64,000 nucleotides of DNA. Origin: a phage. The stretch is taken from the sequence record OZ317122.1; one strand, 5' to 3'. This document shows positions 11,560-52,157 of this stretch, in pieces. The translations under genes and the position numbers were made by a program. The notes below the pieces were generated by a model that saw only the letters and a program-made list of their open reading frames with translations, ran no database searches and was not told the DNA's origin. How positions within the stretch are numbered: the stretch's first letter is position 1; each line of letters opens with the position of its first letter.

Positions 11560-12162
11560 TTATAGATTAAATCCTTCAAAATCAAGAGTATAGATAGTAT
11601 ATGTTGAATACTTTTTGTACTCATATCTATCTGCAATTCTAAATACACTTCCAGCTGGTATCATTACTTCTTGTTCATCTGAAACTAATTCCATATTACG
11701 ATAACGATGACTATCCGGAAACTTAAAGTTTGGATTGTATTCTTTACAGCGTAGAGCTTTTATAGCATACTCCTGGAAATTGAATACCATAGGAGCTTTG
11801 AATTCAAAAATAACTTGTGTGTTATACTCTAAACCGGAAGCAAAATGTAGAGCTATATTTTTATCATATGAAGCTGATACGACTTTATCAAATGTAATAA
11901 TATCAATTCCTTGATTTAACACCTGCTTAGTCTCAGCTGGAACACCTCTCCAAAGAGGTTTATCGTTTGGAACCAAACGAGATTTGATTATTTCATTTAA
12001 CCAAGAATGATCGTCTGGTTTATTAGTAATACAATGAATTAAAAGTTCAATTTCAGATAAATTAAACCCTTCAGAAAGTAATTCTTCACGAATAGAAGCA
12101 CGCACCGATGCATCCATTGATTTTATTTTAAAATCTTTTAGTTGCATTACTGAGTATTTCAT
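11560..12162 (-). CDS. modA: ADP-ribosyltransferase ModA
   Basis: 200 aa; R-S-ExE motif (LWRG, SAS, EQE). Confidence 0.75.
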   Translation of the reverse strand: MKYSVMQLKDFKIKSMDASVRASIREELLSEGFNLSEIELLIHCITNKPDDHSWLNEIIKSRLVPNDKPLWRGVPAETKQVLNQGIDIITFDKVVSASYDKNIALHFASGLEYNTQVIFEFKAPMVFNFQEYAIKALRCKEYNPNFKFPDSHRYRNMELVSDEQEVMIPAGSVFRIADRYEYKKYSTYTIYTLDFEGFNL

Positions 12163-15326: not shown

Positions 15327-15860
15327 TTAATAACCTCGGTCTTGACGTGCGAAATTTTCAGCATTTTTCAGGTAATAAAGTTTAAAGATTTCTTCAGCCG
15401 TAAGACCAAGACCTTGGAACATGTTCAGAACAAAATGGAGAATATCAATCATTTCAAATTTAATTTCCAACTGGTCTTGTGGAGACAAATCAGTAATCAA
15501 AGTTTCACGGCGTTCACCATGCTGCGACTTCCAAGGTTTCCATACAGCAGATGCATCTTTTTCGCCGTTGCTCATACCACCAAGAGAAGTCAAAAGTTCG
15601 CGAAATTCATCATCAATATAATCTTTCTGATTGCGCAGCCAATCAACAACTTCACCTGCAGTAGCCAAATCATCAGGATGACGGTTATATTCAGGTTTAT
15701 CTTTAGCTAAACGAACCTGCAAAGATTTCTGCATATCAAGCATAACCTGCAGCGGGTCTTTTTCATCACCAAGAATATCCCAGTATTCATTTTGAGCTTT
15801 ATCAGCGCCTTCGATCAGTTGACTACATTCGTTAAAGTAAGCCATTATTTTTCCTTTCAA
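15327..15860 (-). CDS. 56: dCTP pyrophosphatase (dCTPase, MazG-like)
   Basis: about 172 aa from MAYFNECSQLIEG; 82 bp from soc. Confidence 0.8.
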   Translation of the reverse strand: MKGKIMAYFNECSQLIEGADKAQNEYWDILGDEKDPLQVMLDMQKSLQVRLAKDKPEYNRHPDDLATAGEVVDWLRNQKDYIDDEFRELLTSLGGMSNGEKDASAVWKPWKSQHGERRETLITDLSPQDQLEIKFEMIDILHFVLNMFQGLGLTAEEIFKLYYLKNAENFARQDRGY

Positions 15861-15905
15861 TTCATTAATAAGTTAAATAATTATATCATTTGATTATGTA
15901 AGCAA

Positions 15906-17245
<1,340 letters not shown>

Positions 17246-42339: not shown

Positions 42340-42810
42340 TTAATCATGTTTCCACACCCCATCGGTATTTGACCAAAGTCGCTGATTATCTGATCCTCGC
42401 CACAGCTTTTTAGTCGGAAGATTTTTCTCATACTTCCCATCAATAATAACATCAACATATTTAAGCATTTCTAGCTGTTTAATATCTTCAAACTTATATC
42501 CTGTCCACAACCAAATGCTTTTATTGGGATAAAGATTTTTAATAGTTTGAACCACAGAGTGAATCACGTCTCTGTTATCAGGATAAAGAGGGTCTCCTCC
42601 AGTTATAGTTAATCCTTCTATATAATCATTATTCAAACATTCAATTAATTGTTCTAGTGTTTCACCAGTGAATGGAACGCCATTTCTAGCGTTCCATGTT
42701 GATTTATTATAACACCCTTCACATTTATGCAAACAACCTGTAACGAAAAGAACGACCCTGCATCCAGGGCCATTCACAAAATCGCAAGGATAAAATCTAT
42801 CATAATTCAT
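42340..42810 (-). CDS. nrdG: anaerobic ribonucleotide reductase activating protein (radical SAM)
   Basis: 156 aa; CxxxCxxC cluster GCLHKCEGC. Confidence 0.9.
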   Translation of the reverse strand: MNYDRFYPCDFVNGPGCRVVLFVTGCLHKCEGCYNKSTWNARNGVPFTGETLEQLIECLNNDYIEGLTITGGDPLYPDNRDVIHSVVQTIKNLYPNKSIWLWTGYKFEDIKQLEMLKYVDVIIDGKYEKNLPTKKLWRGSDNQRLWSNTDGVWKHD

Positions 42811-44679
42811 TGGTGTTTAACCCTATGCATGATTTCTTTATTTTTGCCGAGATTAAATCCACGTTCGTTCGGATTTCCCAAATAACCACAAGTTCTTCTT
42901 ATTGTGTTCATCTTTTTAGGATCAGTTTCTCCACAAATAGAACAAACAAACCCGTTTTCAGTAGGAGTCATTTCATGGGTACTTCCACACGTAAAACATT
43001 TATCTACTGGCATGTTAACACCAAAATAATCTAAATGTTGTGCAGCATAATCCCAGACAGCCTCAAGACCTTTTAGGTTATTTTTCATATCAGGAAGTTC
43101 AACATAAGAAATGTGACCACCTGTCGCAATGAAATGATATGGCGCTTCACGAGAAATTTTTTCAAACGGAGTAATATTTTCTTCTACTGAAACGTGGAAA
43201 CTATTAGTGTACCAGCCTTTATCGGTAACATCTTTTACACTTCCATATTTTTCTGTATCAAGTTTACAGAAGCGATAACAAAGGTTTTCAGCAGGAGTCG
43301 AATATAAACTAAAAGCAAATCCAGTTCTTTCAGTCCACTGTTTAAGATGAGCATTCATTTTAGTTAAAATTTCTTGTCCAATATCACGACCGACAAGAAT
43401 ATTCAATTCGTGAATACCAATGTATCCTAGGGACACTGAACTTCTACCATTTTTAAATAACTCAATTATATCGTCATCAGGTTTAAGACGAACCCCGAAT
43501 GCACCTTCTTGGTAAAGAATAGGAGCAACAGTCGCTTTAACTCCTTTTAAGGAACTAATTCTACACATCAAGGCTTCAAAGCACAGATCCATTCGTTCAT
43601 TAAATAGCTCAACAAATTTCTGTTCATTGAACTGTGTTCCAATATAAGAATCTAATGCGATACGAGGAAGATTCAGTGTTACAACACCGAGATTATTACG
43701 TCCATCAAGAATTTCATTACCAGTCGAATCTTTCCATACGCTCAAGAAACTACGGCAGCCCATCGGAGAAACAGGAATAGATGAACCAGTGATAGCTTTA
43801 TTGTTCTTAGCTGAAATAATATCAGGATACATCCTTTTGCTTGCACACTCTAGAGCAAGCTGCTTAATATCATAGTTCGGATCGTCTTTATAAAGATTAA
43901 CACCTTCTTCAACGAACATAACAAGCTTAGGGAAAATAGGAGTTATCCCATCACGACCGAGACCTTTAATACGATTTTTCAGAATTGCTTTCTGAATCAT
44001 TCGTTCAGTCCAGTCAGTTCCCGTACCAAATGTAATTGTTACAAAAGGTGTTTGCCCGTTTGAACTAAAGAGAGTATTTACTTCATATTCATAAGCTTGA
44101 AATGCATCGTATACGTCTTTTTCTGTTTTAGATTGAGCATAATTCAACGCATCGGCGATTTGCCATTTTTCTGCATCCTCAATATGTTTTGCATAGGTGC
44201 GTTTAACATAAGGAGAAAGTACTTTATCTACATTCGCAAAAGTCGTTCCGCCGTATTGGTGAGAAGCAACCTGTGCAGTAATTTGTGCCATAATTGCAGT
44301 AGCAACGCCAATTGATTTAGGAGTTTCAATCTGTGCATTACCTAGCTTAAATCCGTTTTCAAGCATTCCTTTTAAATCTACTAAACAACAATTAGTAAAT
44401 GGAAGAGCAGGGGAATAATCAATATCATGGAAATGAATAATTCCGCTTTCATGCGCTTTCATAATAAAAGTAATCAATATCATGGAAATGAATAATTCCG
44501 CTTTCATGCGCTTTCATAATAAAAGACGGGACCATATTTTTGGCAATGTGTTTAGACACAATACCAGCCATAAGGTCCCGTTGAGTTGGAAAAACACGAG
44601 AATCTTTATTAGCATTCTCGTTTAAAAGGTCTTTATTAGTTTTATGAATCAATCCTTCAATTTCTTTTTCAATTGTCAT
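42807..44679 (-). pseudogene. nrdD: anaerobic ribonucleotide reductase nrdD, frameshifted by a 55-bp tandem duplication
   Basis: track ORFs 44449..44679 (76 aa) and 42807..44507 (566 aa) both encode FIMKAHESGIIHFHDIDY; removing one repeat copy restores an 1818-nt ORF with C-terminal RTCGY glycyl-radical motif. Confidence 0.85.
44416..44525. repeat. perfect 55-bp tandem duplication (2 copies)
   Basis: 44416-44470 equals 44471-44525: taatcaatatcatggaaatgaataattccgctttcatgcgctttcataataaaag. Confidence 0.95.
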
Positions 44680-45191: not shown

Positions 45192-45368
45192 TTAAGTATT
45201 GTAAAACATTCGATGCAATCGTTTATACTGTCGAATCATCTTTTTAGTAGGACGAGAATAGGTTCCTACGCAAGTGGTCATATGAGGGTCCGTAGAATGT
45301 CCTTTAATAAAAAGTTTCCAAACCTTACCGCCATTTAACTTTTCAGTATAAACCAATTCGGTTTTCAT
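45192..45368 (-). CDS. small protein with C-terminus repeated in the next gene
   Basis: 58 aa by hand translation; C-terminus IRQYKRLHRMFYNT. Confidence 0.4.
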   Translation of the reverse strand: MKTELVYTEKLNGGKVWKLFIKGHSTDPHMTTCVGTYSRPTKKMIRQYKRLHRMFYNT

Positions 45369-45404: not shown

Positions 45405-45890
45405 TCAAGTATTGTAAAACATTTGATGCAATCGCTTATATTGCCGAATCTTTTGGTCAGAAAAAGAAATTTGAGTTTCAAGCCATTCAATGTACTCTGC
45501 GGCAGCTTGCATCAGGTTACCTTCATAGCCATCGTTATTTTCTTGCGCAGCTAATTTAGCTAATGCATATGAAATACGTTCACCTTGAAAAGCGGCTTTA
45601 GGCTTCTGAACATCTTGGCTAGTTCTCTCTACAACTTCCTCGATTTCACCATTTTCAACGGATTCAGTATTCCACAAACACCAATACGTAATTGGCTTAT
45701 CATAGATGTTAATAATTTTTCCATCAGAAAGTTCAATTTCAATAATTCCAGTGTCAGGCTCTATATCATCTTCACATTCTTTTGCAAGTTCACGAACTTT
45801 AAAGACAGTACCTGCACTAAGTTCCGGCCAGTAATTACACAGCCCTGTATCAGCACGATTAATTCTAAACCACTTATCTACTGTAATCAT
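45405..45890 (-). CDS. Pin-like protein (protease inhibitor position)
   Basis: 161 aa from MITVDKWF; track ORF starts at upstream TTG; C-terminus IRQYKRLHQMFYNT. Confidence 0.55.
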   Translation of the reverse strand: MITVDKWFRINRADTGLCNYWPELSAGTVFKVRELAKECEDDIEPDTGIIEIELSDGKIINIYDKPITYWCLWNTESVENGEIEEVVERTSQDVQKPKAAFQGERISYALAKLAAQENNDGYEGNLMQAAAEYIEWLETQISFSDQKIRQYKRLHQMFYNT

Positions 45891-46185
45891 GTCCCATCTC
45901 CATATCAATTAAGTCATTTATCGTTGGTTCATTATATACTGTTTCTTCATCAGTGTAAACCGGTTCTTCCGGCTCTGGCTCTACAGTTTCCCATCTAGCC
46001 GCCCACCAAGGTTTAACCCCGAAGCTTATTAAGTTCTTCATAATCAATCCAGGATTCTAATCCTGATGGCAAATCAGATTCAATTTCCCAAAGAAGCTCT
46101 TCAATTTTCTGAAGACGATCTAGTTCTTCGGCTGGAATAGTAACCATTGACGGAGCTCGTGATACATTAATATCGTAAATCATAT

Positions 46186-46920: not shown

Positions 46921-47206
46921 ATCGGTGTTTACAATGGCGACATTTATAACGAAGAATACTAGTCTGCCAATGAATCAATTGAACCTGTTCAGTTCCACAT
47001 TCAGGGCAATTAGGAACGTTTTTAGAAGCCCTTTCACGACGTTCAACCATGACCATTACAGAATCCCAATTAACAGGAGGGCTATAATCATCACAACCAT
47101 AAATCTTTCCACGCATTTCCATATCATCTTCCTCACCAGCCATAATAATTTTAATTAGACTAGAATTACTTGAAGCTGCAATGTCTTCTAATAGACGCTT
47201 TTTCAT
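46892..47206 (-). CDS. zinc-ribbon protein
   Basis: 104 aa; CPECG...CRHCKH. Confidence 0.5.
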
Positions 47207-48132
47207 TTCAATACCTCAATAGCATTACGTAAACCATTTGCTTTTGCATTAAGAGCTTTTAACAATTTGGTGTGTTCTGCAATTTGGGCTTCAACTTCAA
47301 TCAAACGGGCATTGAGATATTCACGTTCTTCACTCAGATTATCAACCTTTTCTACTTTAGGCTCTTTTACAACTGTCTTATATGTATTAGGGTTCTTCAG
47401 TTTAATTAGAATGCGTGAACTGTATAACATTGAACCATTATCTTCGGTTTCGTCATACATTTCCACTACGTCCATAATTTTTAACATCATGCGGAGTTTA
47501 TAAGACAACGAACGAATAGTTTTGTTGTGCTTATTAATTTCTTTAGCTGTCATGGTGCCAAGATTACGTGAGTAATAATAAGGAACCTGGATATTAATTA
47601 ATACTGATGAACCACCTGGCTTGTGTGTTACTTCATCAGCAATAACCCAGTCCTTAACATGAACTGTATTTGTACGGTCATCGCCCGCGGTAAATAGTTT
47701 GCGAGCATGCTTAAAAAGCATATTCACTTGGTCATTGAATTGACAAGCAAATTTATCAGCAAATTTAGTTTCAGGAATGGTAGAAAACCAATCAGCCAAA
47801 TGAGTCTTTTTAACATCATTAACAATAGTAAATTCAACCAAATCGGTTATAGATGTCTCAGATTTAATGAAGCTCGGCTTCATAAAGTTTTTAATGTTCT
47901 CATGAGCTACAGTAGAAGATAACATACGAGAACGTTTAAACCATTCAAGCAAATTGCCTAACGAATGAGAATAAGCGTTTTGAGTATCTTTACAGATATG
48001 ATTTTCCTGACCAACATATTGAAGGAAATCACGAAGAATATTATTGATTACTGCTCTGTGCCCGATCTGATAATTACGGTGTTTAGTAATAAGACTGTCA
48101 AAATAATCAATATAATGTTTACGAGTTTTCAT
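47203..48132 (-). CDS. hypothetical protein with C-terminal coiled coil
   Basis: 309 aa. Confidence 0.55.
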   Translation of the reverse strand: MKTRKHYIDYFDSLITKHRNYQIGHRAVINNILRDFLQYVGQENHICKDTQNAYSHSLGNLLEWFKRSRMLSSTVAHENIKNFMKPSFIKSETSITDLVEFTIVNDVKKTHLADWFSTIPETKFADKFACQFNDQVNMLFKHARKLFTAGDDRTNTVHVKDWVIADEVTHKPGGSSVLINIQVPYYYSRNLGTMTAKEINKHNKTIRSLSYKLRMMLKIMDVVEMYDETEDNGSMLYSSRILIKLKNPNTYKTVVKEPKVEKVDNLSEEREYLNARLIEVEAQIAEHTKLLKALNAKANGLRNAIEVLK

Positions 48133-48184
48133 ATTCTTCTCACTTGGTTAATGGTTTATACTCCGAGCCATCCTTGGCTTTAAA

Positions 48185-49186
48185 TTACTTAATTAACTGT
48201 AAAGCTTGTTCAAGACGATCAAGACGATTAACGGATTCTTCCCAAATCTTTTTAGCCTGCTCATATTCTTTCTGCGCTTTATTAGAAATTTCTAGAACTT
48301 CTTTATAAGCTTTTTCTAGTGCAATAACTTCTGGACGAATTTCTACTGGTTCAGGCGAATCGTCAAGACATTCCATTAGTTCCTCAAGGGTAGTTTCTTC
48401 TTTAGGAGTATTCACAATTTCATCACATTTTTGTTGGTAAATTTCTTTATCAGTCGGTGAGTACGCACACTTTACTTCACGGAGACTAACTACAATTTTA
48501 TATCCTTCCCAACCGCATATATTCTTAAAAGGATAAGTATGAATATTTTCTACTGTTTCCATACAAAGTAATGCGGTCTCTAACTGACGAGTTATATCAC
48601 TAGCAATTGAGAAAAATTTATTAATGTTCTTTTGATTAGCTTCTGGTGTAAAAAATTCATAATTCACAAAAATAGCTGCTTTATTTTTATCAAGTTCATA
48701 TTCTTTTATGATAATCATATCAGAAGCCAAAGGATGAATTTGACGATAATCGCCATAACATAATTTAGAAGCTGATTTTAGAATTTGCTTCTTGAAAAGT
48801 CTAAAATTACTAATCCAACGACGAGTAAAAATATTCTCAGGGTCTTCTTTATTATTAAGATGATAAGAATTAACATCACCGAACCAACTGTATCCTACTA
48901 CATCTTTGGTTCGTTTAATTTCTTTCCCAAAATTACTAAGAATATCTTGATTAACTAAATATGAAAGAAGACGAGAACCTTTAAAAGTTTCCTTAATATC
49001 ATCTTTATATTCGCGACTAGAAATTTTATGAACTTCATGAATAAATTTGCTTGAAGAAACAATACTTGCATCAATATTATTGAGCCATTGATTGATAATG
49101 GAAAGAACGCTATTTTGGCCAAACATCGGTATAGCTTTATCATCAATAACGCTATTGAATGATTTGATATATTCGTTACGAGTCAT
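48185..49186 (-). CDS. hypothetical protein with C-terminal coiled coil
   Basis: about 333 aa from MTRNEYIKSF with GAGGAG SD; an early promoter lies inside the track N-terminal extension. Confidence 0.55.
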   Translation of the reverse strand: MTRNEYIKSFNSVIDDKAIPMFGQNSVLSIINQWLNNIDASIVSSSKFIHEVHKISSREYKDDIKETFKGSRLLSYLVNQDILSNFGKEIKRTKDVVGYSWFGDVNSYHLNNKEDPENIFTRRWISNFRLFKKQILKSASKLCYGDYRQIHPLASDMIIIKEYELDKNKAAIFVNYEFFTPEANQKNINKFFSIASDITRQLETALLCMETVENIHTYPFKNICGWEGYKIVVSLREVKCAYSPTDKEIYQQKCDEIVNTPKEETTLEELMECLDDSPEPVEIRPEVIALEKAYKEVLEISNKAQKEYEQAKKIWEESVNRLDRLEQALQLIK

Positions 49187-49209
49187 ATTAATCTCCTCAG
49201 TAGAAAGTA

Positions 49210-49245
49210 AGAACATTATACCACATCCTTGTGGCAAAGTAAACT
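49210..49245 (-). promoter_or_regulatory. T4-type early promoter (near-identical to the one at 2429-2457)
   Basis: attataccacatccttgtggcaaagtaaac. Confidence 0.55.
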
Positions 49246-50263
49246 AGTTTAGTGCATTTAGTGCATTGTTCAGTTTAGAACGTTGCTTCGTAAGATTTTT
49301 GACTTTTTCTTGAGCTTTTTCTAGCATCTTTTCAGCTTCTAACACTTCATTAGTTGCTTTAACGAGTTCATCATCTACTGCCTTAAGAGACTTCTCAATC
49401 GCGTCAGCGTGCCATTTTTCTACAGGTTTAAAATTTGAATTTTCAGTAGGAAGAAAACTCACTTTATTAAGTTTACATGCATCTATATTGCTTGAGCTAT
49501 ACATCCAAAATTTAGGATCGTTTGATGAGCAATTAGATAAATTTAAGTTATCTTGCACTTCCTGCTTTTTCTCTTGCGGGACTTCATCCTTTCTCAAAAA
49601 ATCGTATTTAAATGAAACGATCATATCAAGTTCATACGTTGTTGTATGTTCCCAATTTCGCTCAAAATGAGGTAAAATCTTAGACTGAACAGCGGCAACA
49701 ACATCCATATACTTAAACGCTTCTGTCAACTGTGATTTAAGGCATTCACAAATTGAAAGAGAATTTTTTGTATTAGGTTTAAAGCTAATTCGTGCAGTTC
49801 TATTATTTTCTTTTAATGGTCTTACTTCCATCTGAAGAGTATAACCATCAAATTTCAGGTTCTTTAAGTTAATGTCAGAACCTTTTAATCGACTAGCCGT
49901 CGACAAAATTTGTTTTAATTGTTTACGGAATAGAGCAATAAATCTCCATTCAAGACGGTAATGATTTGGATTAAAAAATCCTGTTGATAAATCAACCTTA
50001 CTCTGACCAACGCCTTGAACAAATAGAGGATTTTTATAATCAATAGTTTTACAGAAATCGGTGAGCTGTTCGCGAGCAGTCATTTGCGTAATATATCCAG
50101 CTTTATCAAAATGTCGCAGCCATTCACTGCTATTCATATACTTAAAGTGAATGGAACTATTAACTCTATCAGGGTCTAAATTATTTTGGCACAAAAATGT
50201 CATAACATCACGAGTATAACTGGCATTACGAACCATATCTTCAATTTGAGAACGAGTTTTCAT
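49244..50263 (-). CDS. hypothetical protein with C-terminal coiled coil
   Basis: 339 aa. Confidence 0.55.
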   Translation of the reverse strand: MKTRSQIEDMVRNASYTRDVMTFLCQNNLDPDRVNSSIHFKYMNSSEWLRHFDKAGYITQMTAREQLTDFCKTIDYKNPLFVQGVGQSKVDLSTGFFNPNHYRLEWRFIALFRKQLKQILSTASRLKGSDINLKNLKFDGYTLQMEVRPLKENNRTARISFKPNTKNSLSICECLKSQLTEAFKYMDVVAAVQSKILPHFERNWEHTTTYELDMIVSFKYDFLRKDEVPQEKKQEVQDNLNLSNCSSNDPKFWMYSSSNIDACKLNKVSFLPTENSNFKPVEKWHADAIEKSLKAVDDELVKATNEVLEAEKMLEKAQEKVKNLTKQRSKLNNALNALN

Positions 50264-50271
50264 GGTGTTCC

Positions 50272-51180
50272 TTAAGATTTAAGTAAATCAACAATTTTAA
50301 TTAACTTTTCACGCTCAGATTTAGCTTTACTACTCAATCCAGATAGTCTGAAAATTTCATCATCATATTGTTGAATAGAAATATTCAGCTCTTCAATCTG
50401 TTTATTAAAATAATCAATTTGTTCAGAATGTTTTTCGTTACTACGAACTGGTACAGGTTTTGTAGGCAATTTAGTTGAACTGGATTCATCCGGGCGATAA
50501 ATTAAAATACAATTTGAACCAATCGGGCATTTAGCACCAGACACATATTCTAGTGTTCCAGCTTCTTTTAAAACTTCAAAAGCTAAACAAAGATGATGAC
50601 CCATATTGACATAATCTGTAGAGTGAGCTCTGATGTAATAATCATCTCCACGAGTACTAAATTTAAAGCATTTAAGGTCTTCTGTATTATTGGTCTTAAA
50701 AATCATTTGTTTATCTAGACCTTTAGCTAATCGAGCGCCTAATGCTAATAATCGTCGTTGATTTTCCCACAAATCCGCAATCATTTGGTCAAATGATAAT
50801 TTCGGCATTAGTCGACCATAAAGGTCATATCCTTTATTATAATTGCGAAGGATTTCACTCGCATTAATACGAGACAACGCTCCAATTTTATTAAGGGCTT
50901 TCATGATGCGATTAGATAAACCCATTCCAGATCCGTTTGTTCGTTGCAAATGTTTATCTAACCCAAACCCAATATCAACTTTAAATTTATCTAAAATTTC
51001 AGCATGAACATCTCTGTCAATAACATTCAAATCCAAAGTTGGGTTAAATCTATGAAAAAATTTATCTGGCTCTCCACGACGAAGTACAGTCCATTCATTT
51101 AATTTTTTATTAACTAAAGATTTAATTACTGCATTGACATTATTAATTACTACTGACATATTTTCCTCACTCAATTTCAA
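50272..51180 (-). CDS. hypothetical protein with C-terminal coiled coil
   Basis: 302 aa. Confidence 0.55.
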   Translation of the reverse strand: MKLSEENMSVVINNVNAVIKSLVNKKLNEWTVLRRGEPDKFFHRFNPTLDLNVIDRDVHAEILDKFKVDIGFGLDKHLQRTNGSGMGLSNRIMKALNKIGALSRINASEILRNYNKGYDLYGRLMPKLSFDQMIADLWENQRRLLALGARLAKGLDKQMIFKTNNTEDLKCFKFSTRGDDYYIRAHSTDYVNMGHHLCLAFEVLKEAGTLEYVSGAKCPIGSNCILIYRPDESSSTKLPTKPVPVRSNEKHSEQIDYFNKQIEELNISIQQYDDEIFRLSGLSSKAKSEREKLIKIVDLLKS

Positions 51181-51629: not shown

Positions 51630-52157
51630 TTATGCGAGTACCGTCTTTAACCGTTCTTCAAACTTCCGAAGAGTATTCTGGCGTTCAGCTCTTTGCTTTT
51701 TGTAAGTTTCAATACGCTCTGAAATGAGAGTGTATCGTTCATTTACTGATTCTTTCATAAAATCAGGAATTTCACGAGAAGCTTTAATCTCATCAAATTT
51801 ATCAATAACAGCTTGCTCTTCAGCAATTAAGTTATCATACATCAAAATATCTTTCTTGATGAACTCAATATCTTCTTGAGTTACACGAGATAATTTAGAT
51901 GCTTTATCCTTTTTGTACTGTTCGTTAGTATCACGAGACCAGTGTAATGTACGATTTTTATTCGTATTCTTGTAAATTTCTACAATACCAATCTCATCGA
52001 TAATAACGATCCAATTCCAACGAGATTTGTAAATTTGTCCTCCGTCAACCGTGATTTCACCTCCGATTGAGATGTCATTAAAGAACTTACTTTGTGCTTC
52101 AGATTTAAATTTACCATCGTTGTAATTTACCAGGTTGAAAATATCTTTAGCGTTCAT
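51630..52157 (-). CDS. hypothetical protein
   Basis: 175 aa from MNAKDIF; track extension is translated promoter/leader. Confidence 0.5.
   Translation of the reverse strand: MNAKDIFNLVNYNDGKFKSEAQSKFFNDISIGGEITVDGGQIYKSRWNWIVIIDEIGIVEIYKNTNKNRTLHWSRDTNEQYKKDKASKLSRVTQEDIEFIKKDILMYDNLIAEEQAVIDKFDEIKASREIPDFMKESVNERYTLISERIETYKKQRAERQNTLRKFEERLKTVLA

Follow-up and report, generated by a model that had tools for sequence, protein, structure and literature searches.

Four adjacent genes of the nrdC region in a T4-like phage: probable ancient whole-length paralogues and candidate counter-defence proteins

What are four consecutive genes of similar size which lie side by side in a phage genome and each end in a long helix: unrelated proteins that share a tail, or members of one family, and what might they do for the phage? 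This question is raised by a stretch of 64,000 nucleotides from the phage sequence record OZ317122.1 (the whole stretch is called the window here), in which an initial annotation had described the genes at positions 47203-51180 as divergent bodies built on a shared oligomerisation tail, and had guessed at a role in host interaction or anti-defence. Comparison with the annotated T4 record identified these four minus-strand open reading frames (ORFs) as T4 nrdC.3, nrdC.4, nrdC.5 and nrdC.6. We hold with considerable confidence that the four genes are ancient whole-length paralogues of one superfamily. At a probability of roughly 60%, we further favour the reading that they form an array of non-enzymatic, probably dimeric early binding proteins neutralising host immune proteins, a function which within the array has been shown only for nrdC.5.

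The database families divide the four genes into three groups. The nrdC.5 homologue (49244..50263, 339 amino acids) matches the Pfam domain of unknown function DUF7235 (PF23882) over model positions 1-307 of 307, with 393 bits and an expectation value (E) of 1e-117, the gathering score of the model being 30 bits; nrdC.3, nrdC.4 and nrdC.6 gave no match to DUF7235 at E up to 0.1. The nrdC.3 homologue (47203..48132, 309 amino acids) and the nrdC.4 homologue (48185..49186, 333 amino acids) both match phrog_1435 (E 8e-116 and 2e-167, respectively) and are placed in PF26897 indirectly, through their close homologues, all of which carry that assignment in precomputed form. The nrdC.6 homologue (50272..51159, 295 amino acids) matches phrog_2257 (E 7e-153) and is likewise placed in PF26899 through its 109 homologues, all with that precomputed assignment. 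Scans of Pfam, NCBIfam and PHROGs with the four proteins returned only families of unknown function and no functional name. Many deposited T4-like genomes in GenBank call nrdC.1 to nrdC.11, these four genes included, 'thioredoxin'. No thioredoxin family was matched by the four, for which we reject the label, and it appears to be a spill-over from the nrdC gene-name prefix or the neighbouring nrdC gene.

Three separate families are what one would see if unrelated bodies had been fused independently to a common coiled-coil module, with only the tail shared and the likeness in size coincidental. Pairwise BLAST is compatible with such an origin, since nrdC.5 and nrdC.6 gave only short tail matches against the other proteins, and in iterative searches the first link of nrdC.6 to a bridging family, P0218, runs through the tail. 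By this measure the bodies are indeed 'not obviously similar', as had been noted, with the exception of nrdC.3 and nrdC.4, which share 25% identity over the first 226 amino acids by BLASTP; identity of nrdC.3, nrdC.4 and nrdC.6 to nrdC.5 is only about 13-20%. Comparison of profiles gave a different answer. Homologues were drawn from three database searches, from the syntenic loci of Mosigvirus and Dhakavirus and from a HMMER scan of 1.84 billion cluster representatives, and they sort into nine sequence families; the last 55 residues were cut from every sequence and the family profiles were then compared by hhalign. Without their tails, nrdC.3 and nrdC.4 were joined at 98.4% (E 9e-15, 211 columns) and nrdC.5 and nrdC.4 at 82% (E 1e-5, 131 columns), while the bridging P0218 family was joined to nrdC.6 at 97.4% (E 1e-11), to nrdC.5 at 91.6% and to nrdC.4 at 94.5%. 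All four are thus linked at 82-98%, against 90 control comparisons with the families of nrdC.7, nrdC.8, nrdC.10, nrdC.11 and gp49 that never exceeded 1.9%. The segments aligned among nrdC.6 and the other three proteins are collinear and mutually (triangle-) consistent. Moreover, iterative searches with hidden Markov models (HMMs) started from nrdC.6 or nrdC.5 alone retrieved all four proteins, body and tail, and gave zero matches in 63 other window proteins and 200 shuffled sequences. The multiple alignment shows an N-terminal motif, M(K)TR..(Y)I, common to nrdC.3, nrdC.4 and nrdC.5, together with the further shared motifs F..S(G/R)LS..A..IL..F.K, F...F..N...LL..A.RL..G.D and L..AL..MD.V.

The predicted structures of nrdC.5 and nrdC.6 point in the same direction. 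The AlphaFold2 models, with a predicted local distance difference test (pLDDT) score of 73.5 for nrdC.5 and 77.9 for nrdC.6, show the same order of elements: a helical N-domain, a β-β-α-β-β domain, a linker of low confidence (residues 228-281 in nrdC.5 and 227-241 in nrdC.6) and a long terminal helix. In BFVD, which holds predicted structures of viral proteins, the two models have common full-length neighbours, namely a protein of Enterobacter phage IME523 (2e-8 for nrdC.5 and 7e-8 for nrdC.6) and a protein of Yersinia phage fHe-Yen9-01 (2e-6 and 8e-4), and each model has further relatives in Erwinia, Klebsiella, Pectobacterium, Aeromonas and Acinetobacter phages. The nrdC.5 model also matched a 175-residue protein of Klebsiella phage KPV15 (E 2.4e-3). 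Since the tail-free profiles link all four genes and the elements follow in the same order in the two models, we regard the four as whole-gene tandem paralogues and not as domain-shuffled fusions, and independent fusion to a common tail is, in our judgement, extremely improbable. A diversified family there is, as the initial annotation supposed; what fails is the idea of divergent bodies held together by a shared tail, as the bodies are homologous too.

Some of our own results nevertheless weigh against whole-length paralogy, above all for nrdC.6. Its direct tail-free profile comparisons with nrdC.3, nrdC.4 and nrdC.5 are weak (0.3-20%), because of which its link leans on the intermediate families and on structure. 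The structural comparison, in turn, covers the nrdC.5 and nrdC.6 models by element order and common neighbours, and both models, which are of moderate confidence, were built from one merged paralogue alignment that may bias them to a common topology.

Two relatives illustrate that the nrdC.3-nrdC.6 locus is prone to rearrangement. In Shigella phage Sf25, nrdC.6 (gp220; P0104) reaches 378 amino acids through an internal tandem duplication of about 85 residues. Another protein, P0056, is a 299-residue fusion of the middle of nrdC.5 with the C-terminal two-thirds of nrdC.3, in which nrdC.4 is deleted and the junction lies at a shared 'NKV'. We considered the latter as a natural nrdC.5-nrdC.3 chimera that could bear on homology and set it aside, as it is a simple deletion fusion at the 'NKV' microhomology and is uninformative on that point.

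What, then, is the tail that first drew attention to these genes? Every one of the four proteins ends in a proline-free helix of 43-56 residues with heptad spacing. In nrdC.3 the helix covers residues 267-309 (47206..47334 on the minus strand, as are those that follow), with hydrophobic residues at a spacing of 3-4; in nrdC.4 it covers about residues 283-333 (48188..48340) and ends ...NRLDRLEQALQLIK; in nrdC.5 it covers residues 283-338 (49247..49417) in eight heptads and ends ...KQRSKLNNALNALN; and in nrdC.6 it covers residues 245-294 (50275..50427), with Ile at a and Leu at d positions, and ends ...SEREKLIKIVDLLKS. The two tail sequences that the initial annotation had quoted are the C-termini of nrdC.3 and nrdC.5. 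AlphaFold2 predicted one unbroken helix at 283-338 of nrdC.5 (56 residues) and at 245-294 of nrdC.6 (50 residues), with a pLDDT of about 83-92 past the first turns. By a crude measure of heptad a/d periodicity over the last 42 residues, the tails scored 0.50 (nrdC.3), 0.60 (nrdC.4), 0.75 (nrdC.5) and 0.63 (nrdC.6), compared with a mean of 0.24 (standard deviation 0.10) for the 63 other window proteins of at least 100 amino acids. The tails of nrdC.4, nrdC.5 and nrdC.6 scored above the C-termini of all 63, and that of nrdC.3 was equalled or passed by two of them, nrdC.8 (0.58) and one other (0.50). Against whole-protein shuffles, the signal was significant for nrdC.5 and nrdC.6 (about 0.01) and partial for nrdC.4, whose best window lies outside the tail and whose tail windows still score at least 0.55; the tail signal of nrdC.3 was weak, the weakest of the four. 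The heptad-like, helical character that had been read from the letters is thus borne out.

All tails right-align on a terminal motif, (Q/E)R-x-(K/R)L-x-x-A(I/L)-x-x-LK. When the Protein Data Bank (PDB) was searched by sequence, the full-family profile matched coiled coils only, and through the tail only: these were chains of GCN4 and GCN4 fusions, aligned via the last ~50 positions (E 0.004-1). As in GCN4-type parallel coiled coils, nrdC.6 has the Ile(a)/Leu(d) pattern, and nrdC.5 and nrdC.6 carry a polar Arg at an a position near the tail end; it is from these two features that we take the C-terminal helix to form, probably, a parallel coiled-coil dimer. The matches themselves are compositional and sub-significant, and the terminal motif is specific to the family of the four genes. 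An oligomerisation helix, as had been proposed, is a plausible description of the tail. Between the tails we found only short, chance-level DNA matches (27 nucleotides at most), and no DNA repeats or recent gene conversion.

The tails of two other genes deserve mention. In the T4 record NC_000866 (L001), nrdC.6 is annotated with 275 amino acids, as a frameshift at about 12067-12140 swaps the coiled-coil tail for ...IFLFNNMMMKFSDYLD, while a different frame can still be read as the intact tail (ISIQQYDDEIFRLSGLSSKAKSEREKLIKIVDLLKS). T4 nrdC.6 may have lost its tail through a natural mutation; a sequencing error in the record would be the other explanation. At 51630-52157 in the window, nrdC.8 (175 amino acids) ends in a heptad-like helix, ...KKQRAERQNTLRKFEERLKTVLA. 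We considered it as a fifth member and rejected it, since neither the HMM nor the hhalign tests detected homology.

Taken together, each of the four proteins is proposed to consist of a basic helical N-domain, a small β-β-α-β-β domain, a disordered linker of variable length and an amphipathic C-terminal helix of 43-56 residues. The conserved columns across the superfamily are nearly all hydrophobic core positions, with the exception of one Ser/Thr, two Lys/Arg, one Gly and the tail Arg; acidic, His or Cys residues form no constellation that is kept across the superfamily, and no surface motif besides the tail was seen to be conserved. Conservation almost confined to the core argues for a binding scaffold with variable surfaces and not for an enzyme.

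How widespread is this scaffold? Among the 1.84 billion representatives, the superfamily profile found 36 clusters at E up to 1e-3, which measure about 285-365 amino acids once short fragments and a probable false positive (P0235, 597 amino acids) are set aside. The named clusters all come from T4-like phages, such as Klebsiella phage F48 and Escherichia phage EcS1, and several others from metagenome contigs. In five genera, one to four copies are found at one locus, between nrdC.10/nrdC.8 and nrdC: Tequatrovirus has four, Mosigvirus three (nrdC.3-, nrdC.5- and nrdC.6-like), Dhakavirus three (nrdC.4-, nrdC.5- and nrdC.6-like), and Karamvirus and Tegunavirus one that is detectable by sequence. 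Acinetobacter phage Acj61 has one protein of 304 amino acids, recognisable by fold only, which we infer from its equal length to be the ORF at 15694-16608 of this locus in its genome (L009). As no repeats at the DNA level are left among the paralogues, the duplications must be old.

The four are genuine genes, conserved and maintained by purifying selection. Among eight Tequatroviruses, the ratio of non-synonymous to synonymous substitution rates (dN/dS) was 0.31 for nrdC.3, 0.20 for nrdC.4, 0.17 for nrdC.5 and 0.12 for nrdC.6, compared with 0.01 for nrdC and 0.07 for nrdC.11, from which we conclude that the genes are functional, though under looser constraint than the adjoining enzymes. The value for nrdC.3 is the highest in the region, and its mean identity among the eight phages is 76%. 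In the window, nrdC.3 is 62% identical to its T4 orthologue at the amino acid level, versus 93% for nrdC.4, 89% for nrdC.5 and 94% for nrdC.6; this drop to 62% beside neighbours at 89-94% suggests that divergent allele classes of nrdC.3 may be swapped by recombination.

For what purpose would such a family be kept? The experimental evidence comes from T4 nrdC.5. In the work of Srikant et al. (eLife 2022; PMC9391042), a T4 clone with a deletion removing nrdC.5 did not plate on ECOR17 or on MG1655 carrying ECOR17 dsr1, an NAD-depleting sirtuin defence (NAD, nicotinamide adenine dinucleotide), and plating on Dsr1 cells was regained when T4 nrdC.5, an early gene in the authors' description, was expressed (PMC9391042). 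The ORF at 49244-50263 is the orthologue of this gene, at the same genomic position, and the other three ORFs are its distant paralogues; unlike nrdC.5, they lack a DUF7235 match and have no reported activity. The guess that these are anti-defence proteins thus found its one experimental datum in nrdC.5 and, for the moment, for nrdC.5 only.

Our model is as follows. The array consists of tandem, ancient whole-gene paralogues of one accessory superfamily of T4-like phages (Straboviridae), and the proteins would be made early in infection, with a conserved hydrophobic core holding the scaffold while the surfaces diverge. The tail most probably forms a parallel coiled-coil dimer and would thereby give bivalent binding. 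A 2026 study reported that the sensor domain of Dsr1, common to Avs7, recognises phage major capsid proteins (PMC13581612); made early, nrdC.5 most probably binds Dsr1 ahead of this late capsid trigger, direct binding being proposed by analogy with DSAD1 and DSR2. In that pair, according to cryo-electron microscopy papers, DSAD1 suppresses DSR2 and a phage tail tube protein activates it. DSAD1 of Bacillus phage SPbeta is, as we suppose nrdC.5 to be, a phage protein blocking a defence-associated sirtuin, and serves as our working analogy for nrdC.5 acting on Dsr1. The target, however, is DSR2 and not Dsr1, and the phage lineage and host differ; the analogy is mechanistic only. The three remaining paralogues are predicted to carry the same scaffold aimed at other host targets. 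For nrdC.5 we consider this full model moderately likely; for nrdC.3, nrdC.4 and nrdC.6, to which it is extended by paralogy, it stays tentative and falls somewhat short of even odds.

In its setting the array resembles counter-defence islands, such as the T4 dmd-tifA-adfA 'anti-toxin-antitoxin island' and the anti-CRISPR and anti-restriction-modification islands: there too, small to medium, non-essential early genes sit together in a variable part of the genome, and each is believed to answer one particular host defence (PMC9391042). Those islands, however, hold unrelated genes, whereas here four adjacent paralogues of a single fold are found, and the array therefore grew by duplication and divergence and not by collecting unrelated genes.

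Several observations count against the counter-defence reading and have to be set beside it. T4 nrdC.5 is the one gene of the four with an experimental function, and our literature searches found no paper that says what nrdC.3, nrdC.4 or nrdC.6 do or how nrdC.5 works. The window nrdC.5 differs from that of T4 at 11% of its residues and so need not be active against a given Dsr1. Gene-wide positive selection, a possible trace of a strong arms race, was not found: the ratios of non-synonymous to synonymous polymorphism (pN/pS), gene-wide and per region, are all below 1, with a peak of 0.91 in a 19-residue linker of nrdC.3. Furthermore, the N-terminal helical domains of all four proteins are basic (isoelectric point (pI) 9.4-10.0, net charge +5 to +9), which would equally suit nucleic-acid binding.

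This last property leads to another account, by which the four would be nucleic-acid-binding early proteins, such as dimeric regulators that bind DNA or RNA or proteins that shield the nucleic acid of the phage, and the effect on Dsr1 would be indirect. A dimerising coiled coil joined to a basic helical domain is a common layout of DNA binders, and we saw sub-threshold matches of nrdC.3 residues 30-86 to the N-terminal region of XerD/XerC (E 0.003-0.03) and of 4 of 52 members to Phage_int_SAM_1 (best E 0.08). The XerD/XerC matches, however, reach 14-17 bits against cut-offs of 279-335, and all such family matches lie far under their curated cut-offs; the N-domain profile found no recombinase in the PDB and no significant match (best E 0.37), and we dropped the lead of a tyrosine-recombinase SAM-like N-domain, which this search did not confirm. 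In addition, nrdC.4 as a whole is acidic (pI 5.6), and what the Dsr1 sensor is reported to recognise is a capsid protein and not nucleic acid (PMC13581612). We consider this account unlikely.

At the same time, the genes could be accessory factors for some other role in takeover or assembly, such as modulators of RNA polymerase or virion or assembly components, and one member would rescue against Dsr1 as a side effect. The host RNA polymerase is a target of many T4 early proteins. The fold matches include the RNA polymerase alpha N-terminal (RBP11-like) dimerisation fold and the tail terminator fold, with only 4-15% sequence identity, but de novo designed alpha/beta proteins reach equal match scores, and the structural match is therefore that of a generic fold. 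The nrdC-tk region to which the genes belong is early and non-essential, a phage deleted for nrdC.5 is viable (PMC9391042), and outside the tail we found no conserved surface motif. An accessory role of this kind seems to us very unlikely, and counter-defence by early binding proteins is the reading that we retain.

Counter-defence could also be taken further, to a toolkit of dimeric, non-enzymatic inhibitors each tuned to a different pattern-recognition sensor, likely of the Dsr1/Avs7 type that detects capsid proteins. We regard this extension as doubtful and offer it as speculation. If it were true, the paralogues would use the conserved C-terminal motif either to pair with themselves or one another, as homo- or heterodimers, or to attach to a partner common to them all; T4-like phages would owe some of their differences in host range to a single fold; and the nrdC.3 alleles of this phage and T4, at 62% identity, would mark a specificity switch.

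The window is a Tequatrovirus (T4-like) genome; over the 3,978 bp of the four genes its identity to many other genomes of this genus is 97-98.5%. In the direction of transcription, nrdC.11, nrdC.10, nrdC.9, nrdC.8 and nrdC.7 lie upstream of the four genes, and nrdC.2, nrdC.1, nrdC, the pin region, gene 49 and nrdD lie downstream. The ORF limits first proposed hold for nrdC.3, nrdC.4 and nrdC.5 and had to be changed for nrdC.6, which starts at ATG 51159, after a GAGG Shine-Dalgarno sequence and as in the T4 annotation and the homologues; TTG 51180, the start first given, was rejected, as it would overlap nrdC.7. The gap between nrdC.6 and nrdC.5 is 8 nucleotides, so these two are presumably co-transcribed. 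The ATG of nrdC.4 (49186) is preceded by a GAGGAG ribosome-binding site, and the 57-nucleotide spacer between nrdC.5 and nrdC.4 holds its predicted early-type promoter, a consensus match to the sigma-70 or T4-early type at 49215..49243 on the minus strand (TTTACT, a spacer of 17 nucleotides and tggTATAAT).

Two further observations were made nearby. In nrdD, the gene of the anaerobic ribonucleotide reductase, a perfect 55-nucleotide tandem duplication (44416-44525; 2.0 copies, 100% match) causes a frameshift, so that the gene is broken into ORFs 44449-44679 and 42807-44507; the stretch is 181 nucleotides long in the window and 126 nucleotides, with one copy, in eight other T4-like phages. The duplication may have arisen recently and inactivated the gene, or it may be an artefact of the assembly. 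The gene (42807-44679) is otherwise uninterrupted, without the group I intron and the I-TevII homing endonuclease of T4. In the pin region, the minus-strand ORFs 45192-45368 (58 amino acids) and 45405-45908 (167 amino acids) have near-identical final 14 residues, IRQYKRLH(R/Q)MFYNT, which suggests a partial duplication of the 3' end of a gene.

That the four genes are annotated T4 ORFs, that they fall into three Pfam/PHROGs families of unknown function and that nrdC.5 has an anti-defence role was known already. What is added here is the whole-length paralogy within a phage-restricted superfamily, the domain architecture, the terminal motif, the variation in copy number across genera and a counter-defence prediction for three genes; the papers found by our literature searches make no mention of these points. 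The gain is incremental, with no new mechanism demonstrated. T4 is the best-studied lytic phage, yet the genes of its nrdC-tk region are mostly without an assigned function, and the link to nrdC.5 makes nrdC.3, nrdC.4 and nrdC.6 testable counter-defence candidates, for which the architecture can guide mutagenesis, of the body for specificity and of the tail for dimerisation. For phage therapy, the copy number (1-4) and the allele type may help to predict which E. coli strains a T4-like phage infects. More generally, the array suggests that a phage can enlarge its anti-immunity repertoire by duplicating one scaffold in tandem and letting the copies diverge, as well as by gathering unrelated genes.

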